Part shown: piece by piece, positions 14,512 through 59,130 of the stretch
Position numbering within the stretch: the first letter of the stretch is position 1
Layout: the number at the start of each line of letters is the position of its first letter
Source of the DNA: Ostreococcus lucimarinus
Lineage: Eukaryota
NCBI GenBank assembly: GCA_000092065.1
Contig: CP000599.1
DNA: 64,000 bases
Reading direction: 5' to 3' (one strand)
The notes under the pieces: model-generated
Databases searched by the model: none
Told to the model about the DNA's origin: nothing
The model's input: the letters and a program-made list of their open reading frames with translations, nothing else
Position numbers and translations under genes: made by a program

Positions 14512-15240
14512 TTACATGTCGCCGCGAATCTGCGGGTACGGATGCGTGCAATAGCCGGTCGTTTCGTCCACGAACTGTCTCGCGCAGTTGCACGGCGGTT
14601 CATTGGTGACTATGAGGCCGGAGAGATGGGGCTCGGTGGACAACGCCGCCGCGTCCTCATCGTTCAGAGCGATCACGATCCAGCGCTGATAGACGCGTTG
14701 GGCCTTGTCCCCGTTTGATCTCAAGTAAGAGTGCGACTGCGTCTTGACGTACACGTGATACTTTTCAAACCTCGCGTTCGCGTTGGTTTGCCACTCGCGA
14801 AGAGCCGCGTCGAACGCTTTGCATCGCCGCTCCCTGAGTGGAAATTTCTCACCTTCCTTTCTCATGAAGAAGGGAATCAAACAGCCGACGGTGAGCAGGC
14901 TGCCGAAGAAGCAGCCCACAATATTGGGAGTCTGCGCGATGCACCCGCGACAACCAGCCTCGGGGAAATGTTCGTTCTCGATCGCGTCGAGCTGCTCGAC
15001 GAACACGTCGTGATACTCTTCCGGAGACATTCCGACGGCTTCGAGCGCGCGCGGCGTCTTCGTCATGTCCGCGCGCCGGAGCATTTGACGCGGTCCGAAG
15101 CATCCCTGTCCGCCGTACATCGTCAGGTTCAATCGCACGACCACCTTTACACCGTCCTTCCCTTTGCCGTACACCTCTCGCTTACGCCATTGGGGGCCCA
15201 ATTTCTTCATTTCTTTGGCCATTTTGGCGCAACATCCCAT
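14512..15240 (-). CDS. Cys-rich putative membrane protein with an MGCC N-terminus
   Basis: Internal ATG chosen, giving MGCCAKMAKEMKK... Also CxxC (GCRGC), one hydrophobic span IVGCFFGSLLTVGCLIPFF and a C-terminal PPCNC...C. The longer ORF extends to 15327. Confidence 0.4.
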   Translation of the reverse strand: MGCCAKMAKEMKKLGPQWRKREVYGKGKDGVKVVVRLNLTMYGGQGCFGPRQMLRRADMTKTPRALEAVGMSPEEYHDVFVEQLDAIENEHFPEAGCRGCIAQTPNIVGCFFGSLLTVGCLIPFFMRKEGEKFPLRERRCKAFDAALREWQTNANARFEKYHVYVKTQSHSYLRSNGDKAQRVYQRWIVIALNDEDAAALSTEPHLSGLIVTNEPPCNCARQFVDETTGYCTHPYPQIRGDM

Positions 15241-15660
15241 CGGTGGCGCCTCTTCGACCTCGTCCTTCGCAGTCGTCATCCCCGCGGGCGAGGGCGCGCG
15301 ATTCACGTCCGCCCCCGTCGACGCCATGGACGCACGCGACGCGATCTGCGCGCCGCAATTCCTCCGCCGGAAAACCGGAGGACTCTAAACCCTACTAAAA
15401 ATCGAGTTTCAGAAAAGGCCCGTTTTTGGAAGCATGCTAGTGGAACCTGAGTAAAAAGTGGCCAATTCTACAGTCCATGCTCGTACGGTTTTTCATAATA
15501 CTTTATATCATTATCATATATACCGAATGTCCGAACACACACACACACCATCGCATCGCTAGGGGTGCTTGAATCCGGTATTGGGAATTTCCCAATACGT
15601 ATCGGCGTATTGGGCCGGTATCGGCCGAATGTCCGAACGCGTAAATCGTATGGGCAAACA

Positions 15661-15736
15661 GTATTAAACAGCTGATACGAGCTGATACGAGCTGATACGA
15701 GCTGATACGAGCTGATACGAGCTGGTACGAGCTGGT
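15661..15736. repeat. 10-bp microsatellite (CGAGCTGATA)n, about 7.5 copies (last copies GG variant)
   Basis: gctgatacgagctgatacgagctgatacgagctgatacgagctgatacgagctggtacgagctggtacg read directly. Confidence 0.9.
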
Positions 15737-15764
15737 ACGACGGTGGCGAATCGAATCGAATCGA

Positions 15765-16170
15765 CACATCGCACTCGTCACGCGTATTATACGACAATAC
15801 ATACCGTACAACACCCCACACGAATACCATCAATCATCAATCAATCGCGCGCACGACAAAAGACATCGACGCGCGTCCGACGACGCATCGCCACGACCCA
15901 CCACACGGCACTCGTCACGCGTATTATACGACAATACATACCGTACAACACACCACACGAAACCCATCAATCAATCGCGCGCACGACAAAAGCCATCGAC
16001 GCGCGTCCGACGACGCATCGCCACGACCCACCACACGGCACTCGTGACGCGTATTATACGACAATACATACCGTACAACACACCACACGAAACCCATCAA
16101 TCAATCGCGCGCACGCACCGTTCGAAATCGCGCCTTAGCGCGTCATTCCCGTCGACGCGCCGCGTCATGT
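15765..16170. repeat. Minisatellite: 3 tandem copies of a 130-146-bp unit in a divergent promoter
   Basis: Unit ctcgtcacgcgtattatacgacaatacataccgtacaacacaccacacgaaacccatcaatcaatcgcgcgcacgacaaaagccatcgacgcgcgtccgacgacgcatcgccacgacccaccacacggca starts at about 15765, 15911 and 16041. Confidence 0.85.
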
Positions 16171-17819
16171 CGCGCGACGACGCCGACGCGCTTCGCGCGC
16201 GCGAGACGTGCGTCGCGGTCGTGCGCTTCGCGCGAACCCTCGCCCTCGAGCGCGGGCGCGCGAACGACGACGACGCGTCGCGCGCGCACCGCGCGCGGCT
16301 GCTGCGACTCCGCGCGCGACTCGCGCGCGTGCGCGCGCAACCGCGACGCGCGCGGCGCGAGCGATGCGCGAGCGACGGCGTCGGCGCGCTGTTGGCGCTG
16401 CTGCGACACGCGCCGTGCGCGCACGAGAGCCTCGGCGACGAGAGAAGACGGGACAGGGGATGGACGGGACGCGGGATGGCGAGGACGGGGACGATTCGCG
16501 TCGGCGCGGCGCACCAGGCGCGCGTCGAGGCAAAGTGCGCGACGCGCGCGACGTTCGAGCGAGGGAAGATGAGCGAGAGGGAAAAACGGTTGGCGGGTCG
16601 CGTCGCGTGGCCGAGGGCGAACGGGACGCGCGCGAAGGCGAAGGCGAGGACGCGCGCGAGCGCGACGAAGGGCGAGGGTTCGAGCGGCGCGGCGCGAGCG
16701 AACGGCGAACGCGCGGCGAAGACGGACGCGGTGAAGGATGCGGAGGAAGACGTTTCGAATAATCGACCCGGTGAACGCGGGTTTACGGATGAAGAGATCG
16801 CCGCGTCGCGCGCGGCGCTCGAGGAGGAATTGCGGCGCGGCGGCGCGGACGAAGACTCGTTGTTGGGGTTGCGCACCATCGGCGCCGCGGGGGCGCGCGA
16901 GGGGTGGGACGACGAGGAGGTGGCCGCGTTCGCGGAGCACGCGACGCGATACGGCGACGATCTCTTTCGCTTGCGCGCCAAGCTGCCGAAGAAATCGATG
17001 CGCGACGTCGTGAACTATTACTACAACGTGTGGCAGGTCGGGTTCGCGAATTACGGTCGCGTCGACGTCGAGGGCGCGGAGGAACCGGCGCCGCGCGAGC
17101 GAGCGCGACGCGGACCGGCGCCCAAGTACACCGTCGAACAGGTGCGACGGGAGAAGGATGAAAAGTCGCTGCGCGGATTCGTGGATTGGATTCGAGGCGT
17201 CGCGATCAACACCAAGCGCGCGATGCTAAACGTTCACCGAGCGCCGACGACGGCGCGCGTAAAGGGCCACATGATGACGCGCTGGCGCACCGTGACGCGG
17301 AGCGAGGACGCGGACGACGGCGTCGCGAGAGAGGCGTACTTGAAGGATTTGAAGCGACGCATGACGGCGGCGAGGTTCACGAAGGAGGAACAAGAGGCGG
17401 CGGCGAGAATGAAGACGAAAGCGAAATCGTCCAAAGCGTCGTCCGCAAAGGTGACGAAGACCGCGTCGAGTGGTGACGCGGCGACGAAGACGAAGAAGAC
17501 GGCGTCCGCGCCCGCGGACGGCGCGCCGACGCCGAAGAAACGAAAACGCCGAATCGACGATGGTCAGCCGAAGATTTGTCGAAATTGCCGAGCGATGGAA
17601 ACGAAACAGTGGCGCTTACCCGTCGAGGGCGCGGGCGTGCTTTGCAACGCGTGCGGGTTACGCGATAGAAAACAAGCGAAGAAGAACGAAGCCAGCGCCG
17701 CGGGCGAGACGGAGCCTACGCCAAAGGAAAATAAGACGCCCGATCGGGGGAAGGATGGTTTGAAGAAGAAACGCTCTCCGGGATTGAAACCGACGCCCGA
17801 CCGCAACTTTCAGCTTTAG
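16167..17819 (+). CDS. SANT/Myb-like domain plus GATA-type zinc-finger chromatin regulator (MTA-like architecture)
   Basis: SANT: GWDDEEVAAFAEHATRYGDDLFRLRAKLPKKSMRDVVNYYYNVWQ. GATA finger: CRNCRAMETKQWRLPVEGAGVLCNACGL (Cx2Cx18Cx2C, plant-type spacing). K/A-rich basic linker. Upstream ORF sequence lies inside the minisatellite, so the ATG at 16167 was chosen. Confidence 0.65.
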   Translation: MSRDDADALRARETCVAVVRFARTLALERGRANDDDASRAHRARLLRLRARLARVRAQPRRARRERCASDGVGALLALLRHAPCAHESLGDERRRDRGWTGRGMARTGTIRVGAAHQARVEAKCATRATFERGKMSEREKRLAGRVAWPRANGTRAKAKARTRASATKGEGSSGAARANGERAAKTDAVKDAEEDVSNNRPGERGFTDEEIAASRAALEEELRRGGADEDSLLGLRTIGAAGAREGWDDEEVAAFAEHATRYGDDLFRLRAKLPKKSMRDVVNYYYNVWQVGFANYGRVDVEGAEEPAPRERARRGPAPKYTVEQVRREKDEKSLRGFVDWIRGVAINTKRAMLNVHRAPTTARVKGHMMTRWRTVTRSEDADDGVAREAYLKDLKRRMTAARFTKEEQEAAARMKTKAKSSKASSAKVTKTASSGDAATKTKKTASAPADGAPTPKKRKRRIDDGQPKICRNCRAMETKQWRLPVEGAGVLCNACGLRDRKQAKKNEASAAGETEPTPKENKTPDRGKDGLKKKRSPGLKPTPDRNFQL

Positions 17820-17889
17820 TGTCGCGATTGATCGCTACACGCGACGTCGAATTGTTTACGAATACGGGAATTTTGTTGTACTATATTAT

Positions 17890-20496
17890 TCATTCCTTCT
17901 TGTTGGCGTCTTGAGCGTTATTTTCTTCTCCGCCCGTCTCGACTGGCTCCGTCGTCGCGGGAGCGGGCGGGGCGGGTTCTTTCTTATACGTCGTTCCCTG
18001 AAGATTATTGATCGCCACGGTGATATCGGTGAGCTTGTCGATTGGACTCGTGATATCGCTCTTCATCGCGATTCGCCCCGCCTCGCGCATGCCCGTGATC
18101 CACGCCCCGTGCATCGTCGCCGGATAGTGCCTCGTCGTCGCTTCGCCGCTGAAGTGGATGTTCCCCACCGGTTCGCTCATCTCTTCATAATCGTCCCCGG
18201 TGGCTCTCGTCGAGCACGAGCTGTAGGCGCCGAACGTGTTTTCATCCTTCCCCCACCGCGTGACGTGACTCGCCACCGGCTTGCCCACGTCTGCCTTTGG
18301 GAAAGCGCATCGCAAGTGCGCCAACAAATCTTCCACCACCTCGTCGTCTTCGCGGCTTTCGACTTCGATCGCGGCTTCCCCGGCGCAAAGCGCCAGGATG
18401 ACGTTTTCGTCGCCCTTGTTGTGGGAATATATCAAAAAGTATCGACCGCGATCGCGCGTGTGCGACTGCACGAAACCAAACGTGTCGCACTTTTCGTCCC
18501 AAAATCTTTTTTCAAAGACCAAGATGACCTTGTTCAAGACGCCGAAATTTATGTTCTCTATGGCTTGAAGCTTGCGATGAGGCAACTCCGGGATGAAGGA
18601 AATGACGCCGCGCTTCAAAACACCCAGCGGAACGGTGACGAGGACGCAGTCGGCGATGATGTCGACTTCTCGACCGCAGTGCACGATGACGCCCTTGCCG
18701 CCGAGCGACTGAGCGTCGGTGATGGATGTCACGCGATGACGATACCAAACTCGTAAATCCTTGCTCAGGGCGTCGATGAAACGCACGTTACCACCCGGCA
18801 CGACGACGTGATTACCGGTGAAATCGTACGCGTCGTCTTGATCCCACTGCATCAACGACAACTCTTTCGCCTGCGACGCGTTGGCGAATTCCAAATTCGC
18901 GATGTGCCAGTTGTGCACGTCCTTGGCCGCGTTTCTAGTCTCCATCGGCAACTTCTCGAGCTCAACATTTATTCTCTTCTCGAGTTCGCGCCCGAGCGAT
19001 GAGGCGTTGGCGATTTGTCGATCCATCGCCACGCGAAAGAACGACATGTCTTCCAGTATTTTGTTGAAATTTTTCTCCACCATCTCGTCCACTTCGCTAT
19101 CGACCGTGTCGCCGTTGCGGTCGTACAACGGGCACTCGGGCTGAATGATGTGCGGCTTGATTCCGAGTTGACGCGCGACGACGCAGAGCGGGTTGCCATT
19201 CGACCCGCTCAAAATACTTCCTCCGAGATCGGCCCACACTTTCTTGACGTCTTTGTCGCTCTCGGTGACATTTTTAGTCTTCGTCGTTTCCTTCCCCGCC
19301 TCGTCGATAAACTCAGCCGGAAACTCGCGCGTGTCCACGCGCCCTCCCAAACGCTCGCTCGATTCCAGAACCACCACTCTGTGCCCAAGATTTTTCAGGT
19401 GTTTCGCCGCGGCGAGTCCGGAGATACCGGCGCCGATGACGACGACGGACATCTTTTGCGAGGTCCCTTTCTTCTCCGCGAATTCTTCAAACTTGGACGC
19501 CGTGCGCATGACGCCGTAGTTGATGTATCCGAACATCGTGAGATATCTGTGCACCCCGTGCGCGAGGTTGATGAATTTGTTCTTGAACATGTCCGCCGCC
19601 GCCGTCGCGGACAAATACTCGCGCGGTTTAGCTCGCCATTTGACGATGAGCGCGTTCCTGATCGCGATGAAATCGCCGTCGTTGTGGGATTCGCCCGGCG
19701 GCAGGAACGCGCGCTCGACGTCGGACAAGCCGTCGGTCTCGAGGTTTAATTCAATCGCAATTTCCAAGTCCGCCACGTCCTCCGGTCGCAGCGGTCGCGG
19801 AGCGCGCGGCGGCGGCGCGTTTTTCGCCGCGCGCGCGATCATCTCCGCCTTTCTCTCGATCTCTCGTCTGTGCAAGGCTTCCATCTCCGCCTCGTCCCCG
19901 GTTTGGACGAACACTTCCGTCAAGCGCGTGGGTTTGCGTCGCTCGCGCTGCGACGTTCGCGTCGGCGGCGTCGGCGCGTCTCCGCGCGTCTCCGGCGCGC
20001 GATCGACGACGACGTCTCCGATCTCCTCCGACGTCGTCATCTTCGCCGGCTCTCCCTTTCTGTGATGCCCCTGTCTGAGCGATTCCCCGTTCGCCGTCGC
20101 CGCCGTCGCCGTCGCCGCCTCGTCGTCGCCGCCGTCCCGCCGCCGGCGCCCGCTCGCCGCCGCCCCACCCCCTCCGCCCCCTCCCCGCGTCCCTCGATCG
20201 TCCCCGATCGATTCCTCGCGCTCCGTCTTCGCTCTCTTCCCCCCCCCCGCGTCTCCCTCCCCCTCCTCGCGCGCTCGATCCCGCGTCTCCGTCGCCCCCC
20301 CGTCTCGCCCGCCCGCCCGCCCGCGCTCGCGTCCGCGCGCGCCTCCCTCCCCCGTCCCATCCCGCGCCTCCCTCGCGCCCTCGCTCGCGTCCATCTCGCG
20401 CCTCGAGCTCGTCCCCTCATCGCCTCGATGCGCGAACTCCTCCGTCGCGCGTCGCACGCCGCCGAGCACGCGCCGCAGCAGCACGCCGACGCCCAT
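17890..20496 (-). CDS. LSD1/KDM1-type lysine-specific histone demethylase (SWIRM plus flavin amine oxidase)
   Basis: SWIRM: FLPPGESHNDGDFIAIRNALIVKWRAKPREY...VHRYLTMFGYINYG. FAD-binding: KMSVVVIGAGISGLAAAKHLKNLGHRVVVLESSERLGGRV. C-terminal amine oxidase: IHFSGEATTRHYPATMHGAWITGMREA. The start could be the internal ATG at 20394. Confidence 0.8.
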   Translation of the reverse strand: MGVGVLLRRVLGGVRRATEEFAHRGDEGTSSRREMDASEGAREARDGTGEGGARGRERGRAGGRDGGATETRDRAREEGEGDAGGGKRAKTEREESIGDDRGTRGGGGGGGAAASGRRRRDGGDDEAATATAATANGESLRQGHHRKGEPAKMTTSEEIGDVVVDRAPETRGDAPTPPTRTSQRERRKPTRLTEVFVQTGDEAEMEALHRREIERKAEMIARAAKNAPPPRAPRPLRPEDVADLEIAIELNLETDGLSDVERAFLPPGESHNDGDFIAIRNALIVKWRAKPREYLSATAAADMFKNKFINLAHGVHRYLTMFGYINYGVMRTASKFEEFAEKKGTSQKMSVVVIGAGISGLAAAKHLKNLGHRVVVLESSERLGGRVDTREFPAEFIDEAGKETTKTKNVTESDKDVKKVWADLGGSILSGSNGNPLCVVARQLGIKPHIIQPECPLYDRNGDTVDSEVDEMVEKNFNKILEDMSFFRVAMDRQIANASSLGRELEKRINVELEKLPMETRNAAKDVHNWHIANLEFANASQAKELSLMQWDQDDAYDFTGNHVVVPGGNVRFIDALSKDLRVWYRHRVTSITDAQSLGGKGVIVHCGREVDIIADCVLVTVPLGVLKRGVISFIPELPHRKLQAIENINFGVLNKVILVFEKRFWDEKCDTFGFVQSHTRDRGRYFLIYSHNKGDENVILALCAGEAAIEVESREDDEVVEDLLAHLRCAFPKADVGKPVASHVTRWGKDENTFGAYSSCSTRATGDDYEEMSEPVGNIHFSGEATTRHYPATMHGAWITGMREAGRIAMKSDITSPIDKLTDITVAINNLQGTTYKKEPAPPAPATTEPVETGGEENNAQDANKKE

Positions 20497-21190: not shown

Positions 21191-21653
21191 GTGGAGCGCG
21201 CATCGCGAACGCGCGGCGGCGCCGCGGATCCCGACGCGCGGCGCGACCGGCGCGGCGCGGCGCGGCGTCGAGCGTCGGAACGCGCGTCTCGCGTCGACGC
21301 GCGGGTCCGCGACTTCCGACGCCGCGCGAACGGCGCCGCGGACGCGGGATCTCGAACGCGACGACATGCCGTTTCAAATCTACGTCGCGGGACAGCGCCT
21401 CGCGTCGGACGCGGTGCTGAGCGACGCGTGGCGAGCGAGCGACGCGCGCGCGCGATTGAAACGACCGAGCGCGACGGACGCGGACGGCGACGACTCGGAC
21501 GGCGATGGGCGGGACCGCGGGACGCGGGACGACGGGGCGAGGGCGAAGCGCGCGGCGCGGTGACGGACGAAGACGGACGACGCGCGAGCGCGCGCGCGAA
21601 AAGGGTTCGAATGGGATGTATTTTTTTTTAATGATCAAACGAAGATGGATTCG

Positions 21654-35429: not shown

Positions 35430-38294
35430 ATGTCTCGAGGGGGACAACGCTCGGCGTCGACGTTTGACGACCCGGGGACGTCGCTGAGCGACGCTCGCGG
35501 ACGAGGAAGCGCGCACGATGGGTCTCGAAACGCCTCAGGGTCGCTGCGCGCGACGAATGGGAGCAGGAGCGCGAATGGATCGGACACGGCGAGCCGAACG
35601 GTGAACGGCGGCGGCGCGAACGCGGCGCTCGAACTGGCGGCGACGACGTGCGATGAGTTGGCGCGCGTGCTCGAGTCGCGACGGTACGGACGAGAGAGTG
35701 CGAATTTAGGCAGCGAAGCGATGAAGACGATCGAGACGATCGAGCGCGTGTTGAAGCGAAATAGAGAAAATTTGAGGGAATTTTTCAGCGCGTGTTTTCA
35801 GCCAATTTTGTGTCGGTTGTTTTCGTTCGACGGATCATCCAGTGAGGGGTGGATGAACGCCGCGTTCACCACCGGAAGCGAGAGAGATGTGAAAGACTTG
35901 TTGGATTTCTTATCTCCGGAGGGATCGTTGATCCGAGCGATGTTGATCGCAGATTCGGACAAGTTGGTGCAGTTCGCGTTTCCGCTCGATCGTCTGCCGG
36001 AACGAACACAAAGAATGTTACAGACGGAAAGCGGAGCGATGGCGCTGAACCGATCACCCCCATACGCTGGTTGCATTAAACGAGACAGTGTGGGGAAGTA
36101 TCAGGTGCATTTGGGGCTGTATCATTACTTCATGTTTTGGACGGCATATTTCGCGATGCGACCGGGGGGAAGACGAGGGTCGTCGTCATCGTCGCTTTAT
36201 TCTGCGGGACAAAGTCCGTCTTACAAGAGTGGAAGTGGTCCTTTCGGTGGCACTGGATCTCCAATCAGTAGTGGTGCTGCGTTTCTCGGTGGGCAGTGGC
36301 CATCGACGCCGTCTTTGATGCAACGCGCGCCGTCGAAGCGCGTGCATCCGTATCGCGAGTTGTTACTCTCGCACTTGAAATTCTTTCTTCCGCGCGAGGA
36401 GACGGGAAAGAGTTGGGGCGGTGGCGGTAAAAGTGGTGATGATAAGGCGAATGCGGTGCAAGCTGAGTTTCTGGTGAGCATTTTGAGCGAATTTTGGATG
36501 CCCGTGGAGGAGGCGCGGGGGCCGCAGTCGGGCGACGGCGCTCGAGGCGCGACCGGATCGCCGTTTCGAAGCTCGTTCCCAGCCATGGGTCGCGTCGTCG
36601 ACGCTGCTATGCGCCAGGCAAACATGAGCCCAGTGCGTTCGAGCGGCGATGCGCACCGACGAGACGGCACGCGCAGGTATGCGTACAACCCACCCGCGGT
36701 GGATCACGTCAACGCGGTGACACTCTTGATTACGTACTTGTTTGCCGAACTTCCAGATCGTCGACCGGAGAACTTAGAGGCGATGAAAACCATCGAGCGC
36801 GCGCGTGAGATGATCCAACGCCCGCTGTATTGCTTTTTACGCGATGCCTTTACGCAGTGGCCGACTGAAAGCTCGACAAATACGGAACCCATGGTGACGC
36901 TTTGGGTGGCGTATTTTGCGCCGTGGTGCGCCAAATATCCGCAGAGTCAGACGAAGTCGTCGTCGAGCGGATCGAAGCGCTCAGGATCACCGCGCGCCAT
37001 GCTTACTTCTCCACTCAAATCTAGCGGTAGTGGATCTTCATCAAAGGTGGCGGGGTACGACGACGCGTTGCTCTCGCGCGGAAAAGAGTTCAAGTTTGAC
37101 GATCAAGTTGTCGACACTCCTGGGGTGTTTTCCCACGTTCGTCACGTGTTGAAGAGCATTCCGTTCTACCATGAACTGATGAAGCATTTCTTAGAACTGT
37201 GCTGTAAGCGCGTGCCGCTCGACGCCGAGGGCACGGCGACCGTGTTGCTGGCGGCTTTGGAACCGCTCGCGGCGGCGCCAAAGTTGTTGAAGATCTTACA
37301 AGACGTTGAAGACGGCTACGCCGAGTTTGTTCTGGACCCATTCAAGGGAACTCTGAAAACTATGCAAGCGCGAGAAGATTTAGCGGCGAACGCGGAATCA
37401 TACTACCCTCTCATTCGCTCTCAGCTCCAAGAATGGGAACCCGACGTCGACCCCGTGACGCTTGGCGACACGCTTCCGGGAACGCCCGGGTCCGCGGTGA
37501 AGAGCTCGCCGCTGAGCAAGTGGCACGGTGCTGCTGCACGCCTAGCGGCAAACAAATCATTCGAATCGGACAAAGCCAATGGGGGAAGTTCCAAGCATTT
37601 GCGCATGTTCACACCGGAGACCGACGGGTTGGCGCAAGTTGCCATCGCGCTCATTCATCGCCTCGAGCGCGACGCAACGCAAGTGCCTACGTCTCATCCG
37701 CTTCGCAAGAAAGTGCCAGCATTTCGAGCGGCCTCGTTCACGGTGTTTCGCTTGGAAAGATTCCGCGATACGCCGTACCTGAAGAGCCCAACGTCGACAA
37801 AGTACGTGGACACGGACGCGGGTGAGAATCGTCAAGGATGGTCATCCGCGCGCACGAGCGCGAAAGAAATGTACAAGGGTGAGTGGATGCACAGACCGAT
37901 CGGTGGAAATGAAATTACTTTGCTCGTGAAAATTTTGGTGCCCATTTCGGTGTTCTTGAACAAAAAGCTCGGACTTGACGGCGTGGCCACGGATGAGGGC
38001 GCGAACAAGCGACGAATCGCGTACGCCGACGTGCGTTCGGCGGTGACGGAATCGTGGGCACGCGCGCGGCGAACATCGCGACGGGGCAACCCCGTTGTGG
38101 ACTATGTGTTCTCGATTTTTGCCGTTTTAGAGGAGGTGACGCTCGGATTGTGTCGTCGTAAAGGGTTGACCGTCAACTTGCGACCTTTTAGCGAGTATCA
38201 AATGCTCGCGCTCGCCTGGTGCGCCTACGTCGCGTTCTGGTTCGCGCGCGTGGTTTTGGCCGTGATCACGATGGATTTTGACGAAGATTACTGA
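35430..38294 (+). CDS. Sphingomyelin phosphodiesterase 4 (nSMase3/SMPD4)-like membrane protein
   Basis: [41 protein letters not shown] parallels the SMPD4 block [57 protein letters not shown] and the C-terminal TM [22 protein letters not shown] also match this family. Similarity is from memory. Confidence 0.55.
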   Translation: [954 protein letters not shown]

Positions 38295-58655: not shown

Positions 58656-59130
58656 TGAACTCGAACCGTCGCGCGCGCCGACGCGAAAAACGACCCGTAA
58701 GCGCCAAAACGCACCGTCGCGATCACGAACGCTCCAGTGGGATCGCGCTTTAACCCGACCTCAACTTTTCTCGAGCTTTCGCTCAGATCAAGTGTAGTAT
58801 CTGTTCTATTATGTTTAAACACATAATGAGGCTTTCTTAAGCCTTCATTAGTTTAACCGAATTTCTTCAGAGGGCGTTATTCAAACAGGCTTGTTTACAA
58901 GTCGAATACGCGAGCATGTTCTTGGCCTTGCACTTTGCCTCGAACGTGTACCTCGATTGCCCGCGTCATTGGCACCGCACGCGAATGTGATTTCGCTCCA
59001 CCGTCCAGCCCGCGCGAAACATCGCTCGCGACGCCGCATCGAACGCGCGTGCGCGTGCCGTTCGTTTTTTAAATCAATATAATGTTGCATCATCGCATCT
59101 ACGAGCCGTTTCGCGCGCGCGGTAGTCAAC

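Follow-up and report, generated by a model that had tools for sequence, protein, structure and literature searches.

The 64,000-nucleotide stretch of the Ostreococcus lucimarinus genome analysed here (assembly GCA_000092065.1, contig CP000599.1; hereafter the window) has a GC content of 62.9%, and its open reading frames (ORFs) are densely packed and intron-poor. The product of one of them, at 35430-38294, is identical to XP_001422399.1 of O. lucimarinus CCE9901, so that the DNA is of this alga or of a near-identical strain. Two of them, designated ORF A and ORF B, converge tail to tail on opposite strands with 70 bp between their stop codons, the former encoding a protein with ELM2-like, SANT and GATA elements and the latter a predicted histone demethylase of the LSD1 type. 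It is likely that these are two separate, ordinary nuclear genes, with a tail-to-tail order that was inherited and a spacing that is normal for this genome. The direct observations concern the domain content of both proteins, the absence of a tower from ORF B, the distribution of the GATA finger, the pattern of synteny and the typical size of the gap. The original prediction for the locus, made from the sequence alone, had placed two chromatin-repressor-type genes here; the ORF map and a reading of the sequence agree with it on both ORFs, their strands, their ends and the 70-bp gap, and Pfam and PDB matches recovered the domains it had named, namely SANT and GATA in ORF A and SWIRM and amine oxidase in ORF B. 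The features of the locus, in window coordinates, are the following:

16167..17819, plus strand: ORF A, an ELM2-like + SANT + GATA protein, 550 aa from the first ATG
16488..16613, plus strand: ELM2-type N-terminal motif, ORF A aa 108-149 (GTIRVGAAHQARV ... LAGRVAWP), collinear with the ELM2 start of MTA1 and RCOR1
16779..17036, plus strand: last ELM2-like helix and SANT, ORF A aa 205-290, from PDB matches and hhalign
17154..17291, plus strand: family-specific conserved C-terminal segment, ORF A aa 330-375 (FVDWIRGVAINTKRAMLNVHRAPTTARVKGHMMTRWR), with the densest invariant columns in the ortholog alignment A1 (see below)
17577..17681, plus strand: GATA zinc finger, ORF A aa 471-505 (CRNCRAMETKQWRLPVEGAGVLCNAC), Pfam GATA E=7e-10, CX2CX18CX2C
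17820..17889, no strand: spacer between the convergent ORF A and ORF B, 70 bp from stop to stop, read from the sequence
17890..20496, minus strand: ORF B, a predicted plant-type LSD1-like (LDL) flavin amine-oxidase histone demethylase lacking both tower and ARID, 868 aa
18070..19425, minus strand: FAD amine-oxidase domain, ORF B aa 358-809, Pfam Amino_oxidase E=2.3e-71
19516..19734, minus strand: SWIRM domain, ORF B aa 255-327, Pfam SWIRM E=3.3e-13

ORF A is a member of a green-algal family that is small and evolves fast. A word-index search returned 32 homologs, and an exhaustive hidden Markov model (HMM) profile search of 1.84 billion representatives gave a family of 33 proteins at E ≤ 0.001; the ortholog of O. 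tauri (XP_022840633.1) is labelled 'unnamed product', and other sources use 'hypothetical protein'. The exact ORF A sequence was not found by exact look-up in public assemblies, and that of ORF B was found there only on short, near-identical metagenome contigs. GC3 of ORF A is 0.81. A long GTG-initiated ORF from 16044 runs into upstream repeats, and the orthologs favour a start of ORF A at the first ATG (16167). Two tandem-repeat arrays lie in the region just upstream of this ATG: seven copies of a 10-bp unit (AGCTGATACG) at 15670-15740 and 2.6 copies of a 130-bp unit at 15771-16115 (95% matches).

The alignment of 14 ORF A orthologs (A1) revealed a series of conserved segments. On the N-terminal side these are a helix, the segment LLALLxHAP..HESL..GWTG...GxIRVGxxHQA ... 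LGxxxWP, and FTxEEIAxSRxALE..LR; from SANT onward they are the SANT region itself, ending in MRDVVxYYYNVWQ, followed by GRVDVEGA and by FxxWIRGVAxNxKRAxxNVHRAPxTAR...MTRWR. Upstream of SANT, the window protein carries the ELM2-type motif IRVGAAHQA ... LAGRVAWP, and the pattern IRVGxx[HY]QA was present in every lineage where the region was read. The SANT region (aa 244-290) ends in VVNYYYNVWQ, which corresponds to the corepressor-type YYYxWK helix 3 with the K after W replaced by Q; its Pfam Myb/SANT match (aa 244-287) lies below threshold (17.3 bits vs a cut-off of 24.4). Searched as a single sequence, ORF A matched the SANT domains of RERE (E=1.8e-4) and MTA3 (5e-3) in PDB, and among PDB entries the family profile matched only ELM2-SANT corepressors, namely MTA1 (4bkx, 4.8e-4), MTA3, RERE, RCOR1 and MIDEAS. 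Both the ELM2 motif (IRVG..QA/LG..VW) and the SANT of the family are collinear with the ELM2 start and SANT of MTA1 and RCOR1, the per-domain scores of the ELM2-motif alignment to that start being insignificant. With hhalign, the last ELM2 helix and SANT of ORF A aligned to P0366, a protein with a clear Pfam ELM2 match and a SANT, at 93.6% probability, and ORF A aligned to the Bryopsis ARID-ELM2-SANT protein P0371 at 97.4%, the latter alignment covering the C-terminal WI[RK]GV motif. The nearest relatives beyond Mamiellales are chlorophyte SANT and ARID-ELM2-SANT proteins. The segment at aa 330-375 also occurs in the Micromonas, Bathycoccus-like, Myrmecia and Bryopsis relatives and matches no Pfam family.

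These comparisons characterise ORF A most aptly as a member of a green-algal family with ELM2-like and SANT elements. The ELM2 element is called 'like' because Pfam ELM2 stays below threshold, all of its support coming from the orthologs and from profile comparisons: the Pfam model matches 5 of the 14 orthologs weakly, and in a Bathycoccus-like ortholog it reaches 21.5 bits vs a cut-off of 21.7. Pfam detected no BAH domain in ORF A or in any of the 14 orthologs, even at E ≤ 5, and neither a second SANT nor a recognisable CoREST-type linker-SANT2 was detected in ORF A, which contains a single SANT region.

The GATA finger has a distribution of its own. Its best PDB match is Arabidopsis GATA18, and in alignment A1 it forms a clean block of ~48 residues that is confined to the window clade (93-97% identical sequences) and to the clade of P0011/L016 (64%), that is, to 2 of at least 10 lineages, both of them Ostreococcus clades. 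All other orthologs examined, from O. tauri, the other Ostreococcus-like clades, the Bathycoccus-like genomes and Micromonas, lack it. By parsimony, the finger appears to have been gained recently, in the lucimarinus lineage; a word-index search for its origin with a 71-aa GATA segment gave no matches. Since the finger occurs only in two Ostreococcus clades, the MTA/RERE-like order of ORF A is convergent and not a homology of architecture, and the protein is a case in which a plant-type GATA finger, recently acquired, imitates the MTA/RERE arrangement.

This distribution bears directly on the idea that ORF A descends from, or is truly orthologous to, the animal MTA/RERE family and would mark an ancient NuRD-like subunit of green algae, which we regard as very improbable. 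The succession of ELM2-like motif, SANT and GATA, together with the best PDB matches of the SANT (RERE, MTA3 and MTA1), would fit such an origin, but the protein has no BAH, its X18 finger is closest to a plant GATA factor and is missing from most orthologs, as expected of a recent gain, and its nearest relatives outside Mamiellales are chlorophyte proteins. MTA/RERE orthology was accordingly rejected, being effectively refuted by the phyletic pattern of the finger. The term 'MTA-like' in the original prediction is fair for the order of the domains, and does not extend to the absent BAH or to a GATA finger that is plant-type and lineage-restricted.

ORF B has human KDM1A (E=1.7e-90) and KDM1B as its best solved relatives. 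It aligns to human KDM1A in three pieces, jumping from human residue 419 to 504, so that the ~90-residue tower is left without a counterpart; its oxidase domain of 452 aa, vs a 443-position Pfam profile, likewise leaves no room for a tower-size insert. Motifs aligned with human LSD1 include the GAGISGLAAA dinucleotide fold, the WDQDD acidic patch, LNKV (K661) and GAYS (Y761), and from these the enzyme looks catalytically competent. Land-plant 'LSD1 homolog 1' proteins (~40% identity) are its nearest named relatives beyond Mamiellales. In content ORF B corresponds to plant LDL/FLD proteins, with SWIRM and amine oxidase and with neither a tower nor LSD2-type zinc fingers, the plant-type grouping being one by domain content and nearest named relatives. 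Published phylogenies already contain LDL/FLD homologs from green algae, O. lucimarinus and O. tauri among them (PMC6558185). ORF B is thus predicted to demethylate H3K4 as an LSD1-like enzyme of the plant type, without a tower and with its catalytic motifs intact.

The first ~150 residues of ORF B (about 20040-20496) are an R/G/E-rich region of low complexity. Many metagenome gene calls begin the protein at M153, which gives it 716 aa. Similarity to the O. tauri protein extends further upstream, to about residue 139; the true start is probably M1 or M35.

In the animal complex, the CoREST linker binds the LSD1 tower (PMC10721905; PMC6558185). Because ORF B has no tower, a SANT-to-tower contact of the animal CoREST style cannot apply here. 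The contact of this kind that the original prediction had proposed for the two products is ruled out, human residues ~420-503 having no counterpart in ORF B, and a CoREST-type tower interaction between ORF A and ORF B was rejected for the same reason.

The conservation of the adjacency was followed in relatives. In first context look-ups, which covered orthologs at 45-56% identity including that of O. tauri, A was convergent with LSD1 in all cases, with gaps of 86-171 bp. A metagenome scan then gave 64 loci, mapped by blastx, of which 26 are Ostreococcus-like and 38 Bathycoccus-like (L039-L076):

Ostreococcus-like loci (n=26, at least 8 lineages): GC 53-64%, A identity 40-96%
Ostreococcus-like gene order: Cornichon (plus), LPA2-like (minus), A (plus), LSD1 (minus), small ORF (plus), hydrolase (minus), 444-aa gene (minus)
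Bathycoccus-like loci (n=38): GC 40-48%; Cornichon (plus), LPA2-like (minus), A (plus), hydrolase (minus), 444-aa gene (minus), AP-3 delta (plus)

A and LSD1 are convergent in 26/26 Ostreococcus-like loci, each with a gap of 62-170 bp. In the Bathycoccus-like group (38 loci found), each of the 30 loci that have the downstream flank shows a block that is otherwise collinear and contains no LSD1, and no LSD1 of Bathycoccus type (low-GC, K/N/E-rich) was recognised among nine of the best LSD1 homologs that were inspected. Micromonas shows two arrangements. M. pusilla CCMP1545 (L009) and the related 800-kb contig L010 share the arrangement LSD1 (plus), Band_7 (minus), A homolog (minus), ..., LPA2-like, Cornichon, so that A and LSD1 are linked within about 2.5 kb with Band_7 in between; the A homologs of these two loci were identified with the family profile (E=1e-12 and 3e-9) and by common motifs. 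On the Micromonas-like contig L012 (GC 63%), the A homolog lies directly tail to tail with an ARID-SWIRM-oxidase gene, 111 bp apart. By parsimony, the convergent A-LSD1 adjacency is ancestral to Ostreococcus and Micromonas; Band_7 later came to lie between the two genes in one branch of Micromonas, and in the Bathycoccus-like genomes the adjacency was lost or relocated. On this reading the two genes sit in a collinear block (Cornichon, LPA2-like, A, LSD1, ...) inherited from the ancestor that these two genera shared.

The adjacencies of Cornichon, LPA2-like and A, which are functionally unrelated genes, are kept in all three genera and are at least as conserved as that of A and LSD1, and Mamiellales chromosomes are generally collinear (PMC3491373). 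Given equally syntenic unrelated neighbours and the published collinearity, the conservation of the A-LSD1 pair is what background microsynteny predicts, and the persistence of ORF A orthologs where no LSD1 gene is adjacent counts against an obligatory cis relationship. Conservation of the adjacency in relatives, which the original prediction had named as a check, comes out mixed: Ostreococcus and one Micromonas-like lineage keep it, in M. pusilla the two genes are separated, the Bathycoccus-like genomes do not have it, and the adjacencies of unrelated neighbours are conserved no less well. Both proteins evolve much faster than their neighbours. Across Ostreococcus-like lineages (window vs L003-L006), identity is 44-57% for ORF A and 54-58% for LSD1, and reaches 56-65% for the hydrolase, 66-71% for the 444-aa gene and 89-94% for AP-3 delta. 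By rough reasoning, if chromatin regulators account for several percent of some 7,600 genes, a handful of adjacent chromatin-gene pairs would be expected by chance in such a genome.

The spacing of the pair is likewise unexceptional. Nine convergent pairs, ORF A/ORF B included, were taken from a crude ORF map of the window, and the stop-to-stop gaps of the other eight are 38, 82, 185, 1053, 80, 220, 120 and 142 bp. The 70-bp gap is an ordinary convergent spacing in a compact genome and not a mark of this pair, and because it falls inside the usual range for the window, any overlap of the 3' untranslated regions (UTRs) would be generic. The original prediction had taken the gap to imply overlapping 3' UTRs and possibly coordinated expression; the other convergent gaps, mostly 38-220 bp, show such spacing to be a general property of the genome. 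The spacer is identical in near-identical strains and not alignable between clades; it contains no Rfam match and no tRNA, and its predicted RNA fold is unremarkable (z=0.11). A scan of the whole window with Rfam identified no family except a U2 small nuclear RNA (snRNA), far from the spacer. A shared promoter for ORF A and ORF B was rejected, the genes being convergent and not divergent.

In Micromonas gene models, average intergenic distances are 167-211 nt and the combined UTR amounts to ~145 nt per transcript, and many 'convergent overlapping pairs' (COPs) have overlapping 3' UTRs, suggested as a means of reciprocal regulation (PMC4815162). By analogy, an overlap of the 3' UTRs of ORF A and ORF B is plausible, and their 3' ends probably overlap or abut, like those of many convergent pairs in these algae; a literature search for data on 3' UTR overlap in Ostreococcus found nothing specific. 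A stronger claim would be that the tight convergence is itself functional, with overlapping 3' UTRs that lead to antisense pairing or transcriptional interference and thereby to coupled or mutually exclusive expression. The gap is indeed short in every Ostreococcus-like lineage and on L012, and the UTR lengths and the reciprocal regulation suggested for the Micromonas COPs (PMC4815162) would suit such coupling. We nonetheless judge it quite improbable: a gap of normal size makes the overlap generic, the spacer sequence is unconserved between clades and has no significant structure, Band_7 interrupts the pair in M. pusilla and L010, and the Bathycoccus-like loci, where A persists, have no LSD1 at this site. 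Tight convergent spacing in these genomes is not by itself a sign of functional coupling.

The probable roles of the two products can be outlined as follows. Animal ELM2-SANT modules dock class I histone deacetylases (HDACs), as in MTA1-HDAC1. By this analogy ORF A would act as a DNA-targeted scaffold for a class I HDAC, with GATA as the targeting element, so that a family so far 'hypothetical' or 'unnamed' is given a likely role as an HDAC-corepressor-like ELM2-SANT protein. ORF B, judged by its motifs, would remove methyl groups from H3K4me1/2. Should the two cooperate, the link would most likely run indirectly, via a class I HDAC common to both and not by a tower contact, on the model of Arabidopsis, where HDA6 binds FLD, LDL1 and LDL2 (PMC6237806) and ELM2/SANT proteins (ESANT1/2, GyrB3) bind HDA6/HDA19 (bioRxiv 10.1101/2025.08.11.669681). 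A shared HDAC/demethylase pathway for ORF A and ORF B is, on this comparison, plausible.

A closer association would unite both products in a single co-repressor complex, the green-algal equivalent of CoREST-LSD1-HDAC, with a linkage of the genes that reflects the partnership of the proteins. The ELM2-SANT scaffold would hold a class I HDAC and bring in the demethylase that has no tower, either by direct contact or through the HDAC, and the targeting modules would have been swapped between lineages, with GATA on the O. lucimarinus scaffold and, in Micromonas, PHD on the scaffold and ARID on the demethylase. The PHD and ARID modules are observed at the Micromonas loci (L009 8001-14564, L010 8001-14342, L012 677-4048). 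Micromonas-like ORF A orthologs carry a PHD finger in place of GATA (Pfam 32.7 bits; also visible at the M. pusilla locus), which sits between SANT helices 2 and 3, and the Micromonas LSD1-like proteins have an N-terminal ARID that is absent from all Ostreococcus-like orthologs. In Bryopsis P0371 and in Arabidopsis ARID1 (PMC4109846), an ARID is fused to ELM2-SANT. To these points in favour of a complex may be added the resemblance of the ORF A family to the ELM2-SANT of MTA1, RCOR1 and MIDEAS, the adjacency in all 26 Ostreococcus-like loci and on L012, with linkage at ~2.5 kb in M. pusilla and L010, the double binding capacity of Arabidopsis HDA6 described above, and the fact that ORF A and LSD1 both evolve far faster than AP-3 delta. 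Module swapping and fast evolution are hints that keep the idea of a partnership alive without proving it.

A single complex nevertheless seems to us rather unlikely. Without a tower, the one interface between a SANT corepressor and LSD1 that is structurally defined is unavailable, and on the ORF A side the second SANT and the CoREST-type linker are missing too. The Bathycoccus-like genomes retain the scaffold gene in the block with no LSD1 beside it, the unrelated neighbours are just as syntenic, and plants are reported to be without CoREST homologs (PMC6558185). A still broader version, in which the old, Mamiellales-wide linkage marks a demethylase/deacetylase co-repressor module that uses an interface other than the CoREST tower and has redistributed its reader modules between the partners, is distinctly unlikely.

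Two ordinary genes with inherited order and normal spacing therefore remain the account we prefer, and several points weigh against it or against its components. The ELM2 call is sub-threshold, Pfam ELM2 giving no match in the window's ORF A even at E ≤ 5. For ORF A, AlphaFold2 run on the 14-sequence alignment gave a model with a mean pLDDT of 40.6 and a pTM of 0.20, which has three helices at low confidence in the region of the last ELM2-like helix and SANT and is too poor for testing the fold. The comparison by which the adjacency is no better conserved than its background draws on the few neighbouring genes in the loci compared. Direct convergence survives the deep split of Ostreococcus and Micromonas in at least one Micromonas-like lineage. 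Finally, the products would represent the two enzyme arms that are joined in animal CoREST, a deacetylase scaffold and a demethylase, and a selective reason for the linkage is by that analogy still conceivable. Taken as a whole, the original picture of an MTA-like protein, an LSD1 partner and antisense coupling is partly supported: it holds in its domain calls and in the order of the domains, fails on the tower contact, and draws no support from the gap, which is ordinary for this genome. If the products do cooperate, Ostreococcus would offer a minimal system for the coupling of a tower-less LSD1-type demethylase to histone deacetylation in the green lineage; O. tauri is genetically transformable.

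Three further elements were recorded in the window. A 271-aa ORF at 14512-15327 (minus strand), between the LPA2-like gene and ORF A, has a coding-like GC3 of 0.75 and no Pfam match; blastx found it in the near-identical locus L013 and in no other Ostreococcus-like, Bathycoccus-like or Micromonas locus, and it looks like a lineage-specific gene insertion. Between the LSD1 gene and the hydrolase gene, a 65-aa ORF (MPFQIYVAGQRLASDAVLSDAWRA...) at 21366-21563 (plus strand) is conserved across other Ostreococcus-like loci, and a counterpart, apparently intron-split (...QNIYVGGKQIDAKLILSDDWKK...), was seen by eye in the Bathycoccus-like L011, flanked there by the A homolog and the hydrolase gene; this small ORF is probably a genuine gene. 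The third element, at 58763-58956 (plus strand), is a gene for U2 spliceosomal snRNA in full length (Rfam RF00004, 110.7 bits, E=1.6e-21).

Compared with known systems, ORF A resembles animal MTA1-3 and RERE in having an ELM2-type motif, a SANT with a YYYxW helix and a GATA-type finger downstream. It differs from these BAH-ELM2-SANT-GATA proteins of HDAC1/2 complexes in lacking BAH and in a finger that is X18 and not X17 and was gained independently. Its SANT-to-GATA distance of ~180 aa is longer than that of MTA1, which is ~60 aa. The pair as such recalls animal CoREST(RCOR)-LSD1-HDAC1/2 in combining one ELM2-like/SANT protein with one SWIRM/amine-oxidase demethylase, RCOR1 being among the profile matches of ORF A, whereas the RCOR-binding tower is absent from ORF B and ORF A has a single SANT. 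In arrangement, the two genes are like the Micromonas COPs, lying tail to tail with a spacing shorter than two typical 3' UTRs together (PMC4815162); unlike COPs, which are found mainly in the low-GC region and have large upstream intergenic distances, they lie in normal high-GC sequence. ORF B shares with Arabidopsis LDL1, LDL2 and FLD the tower-less combination of SWIRM and amine oxidase, and departs from them in its long low-complexity N-terminus and in its very fast evolution within the genus (54-58% identity). ORF A shares with Arabidopsis ESANT1/2, ARID1 and GyrB3 the combination of an ELM2 or ELM2-like element with SANT in the green lineage, whereas the Mamiellales family is highly diverged, is without ARID and carries a lineage-specific GATA or PHD finger.

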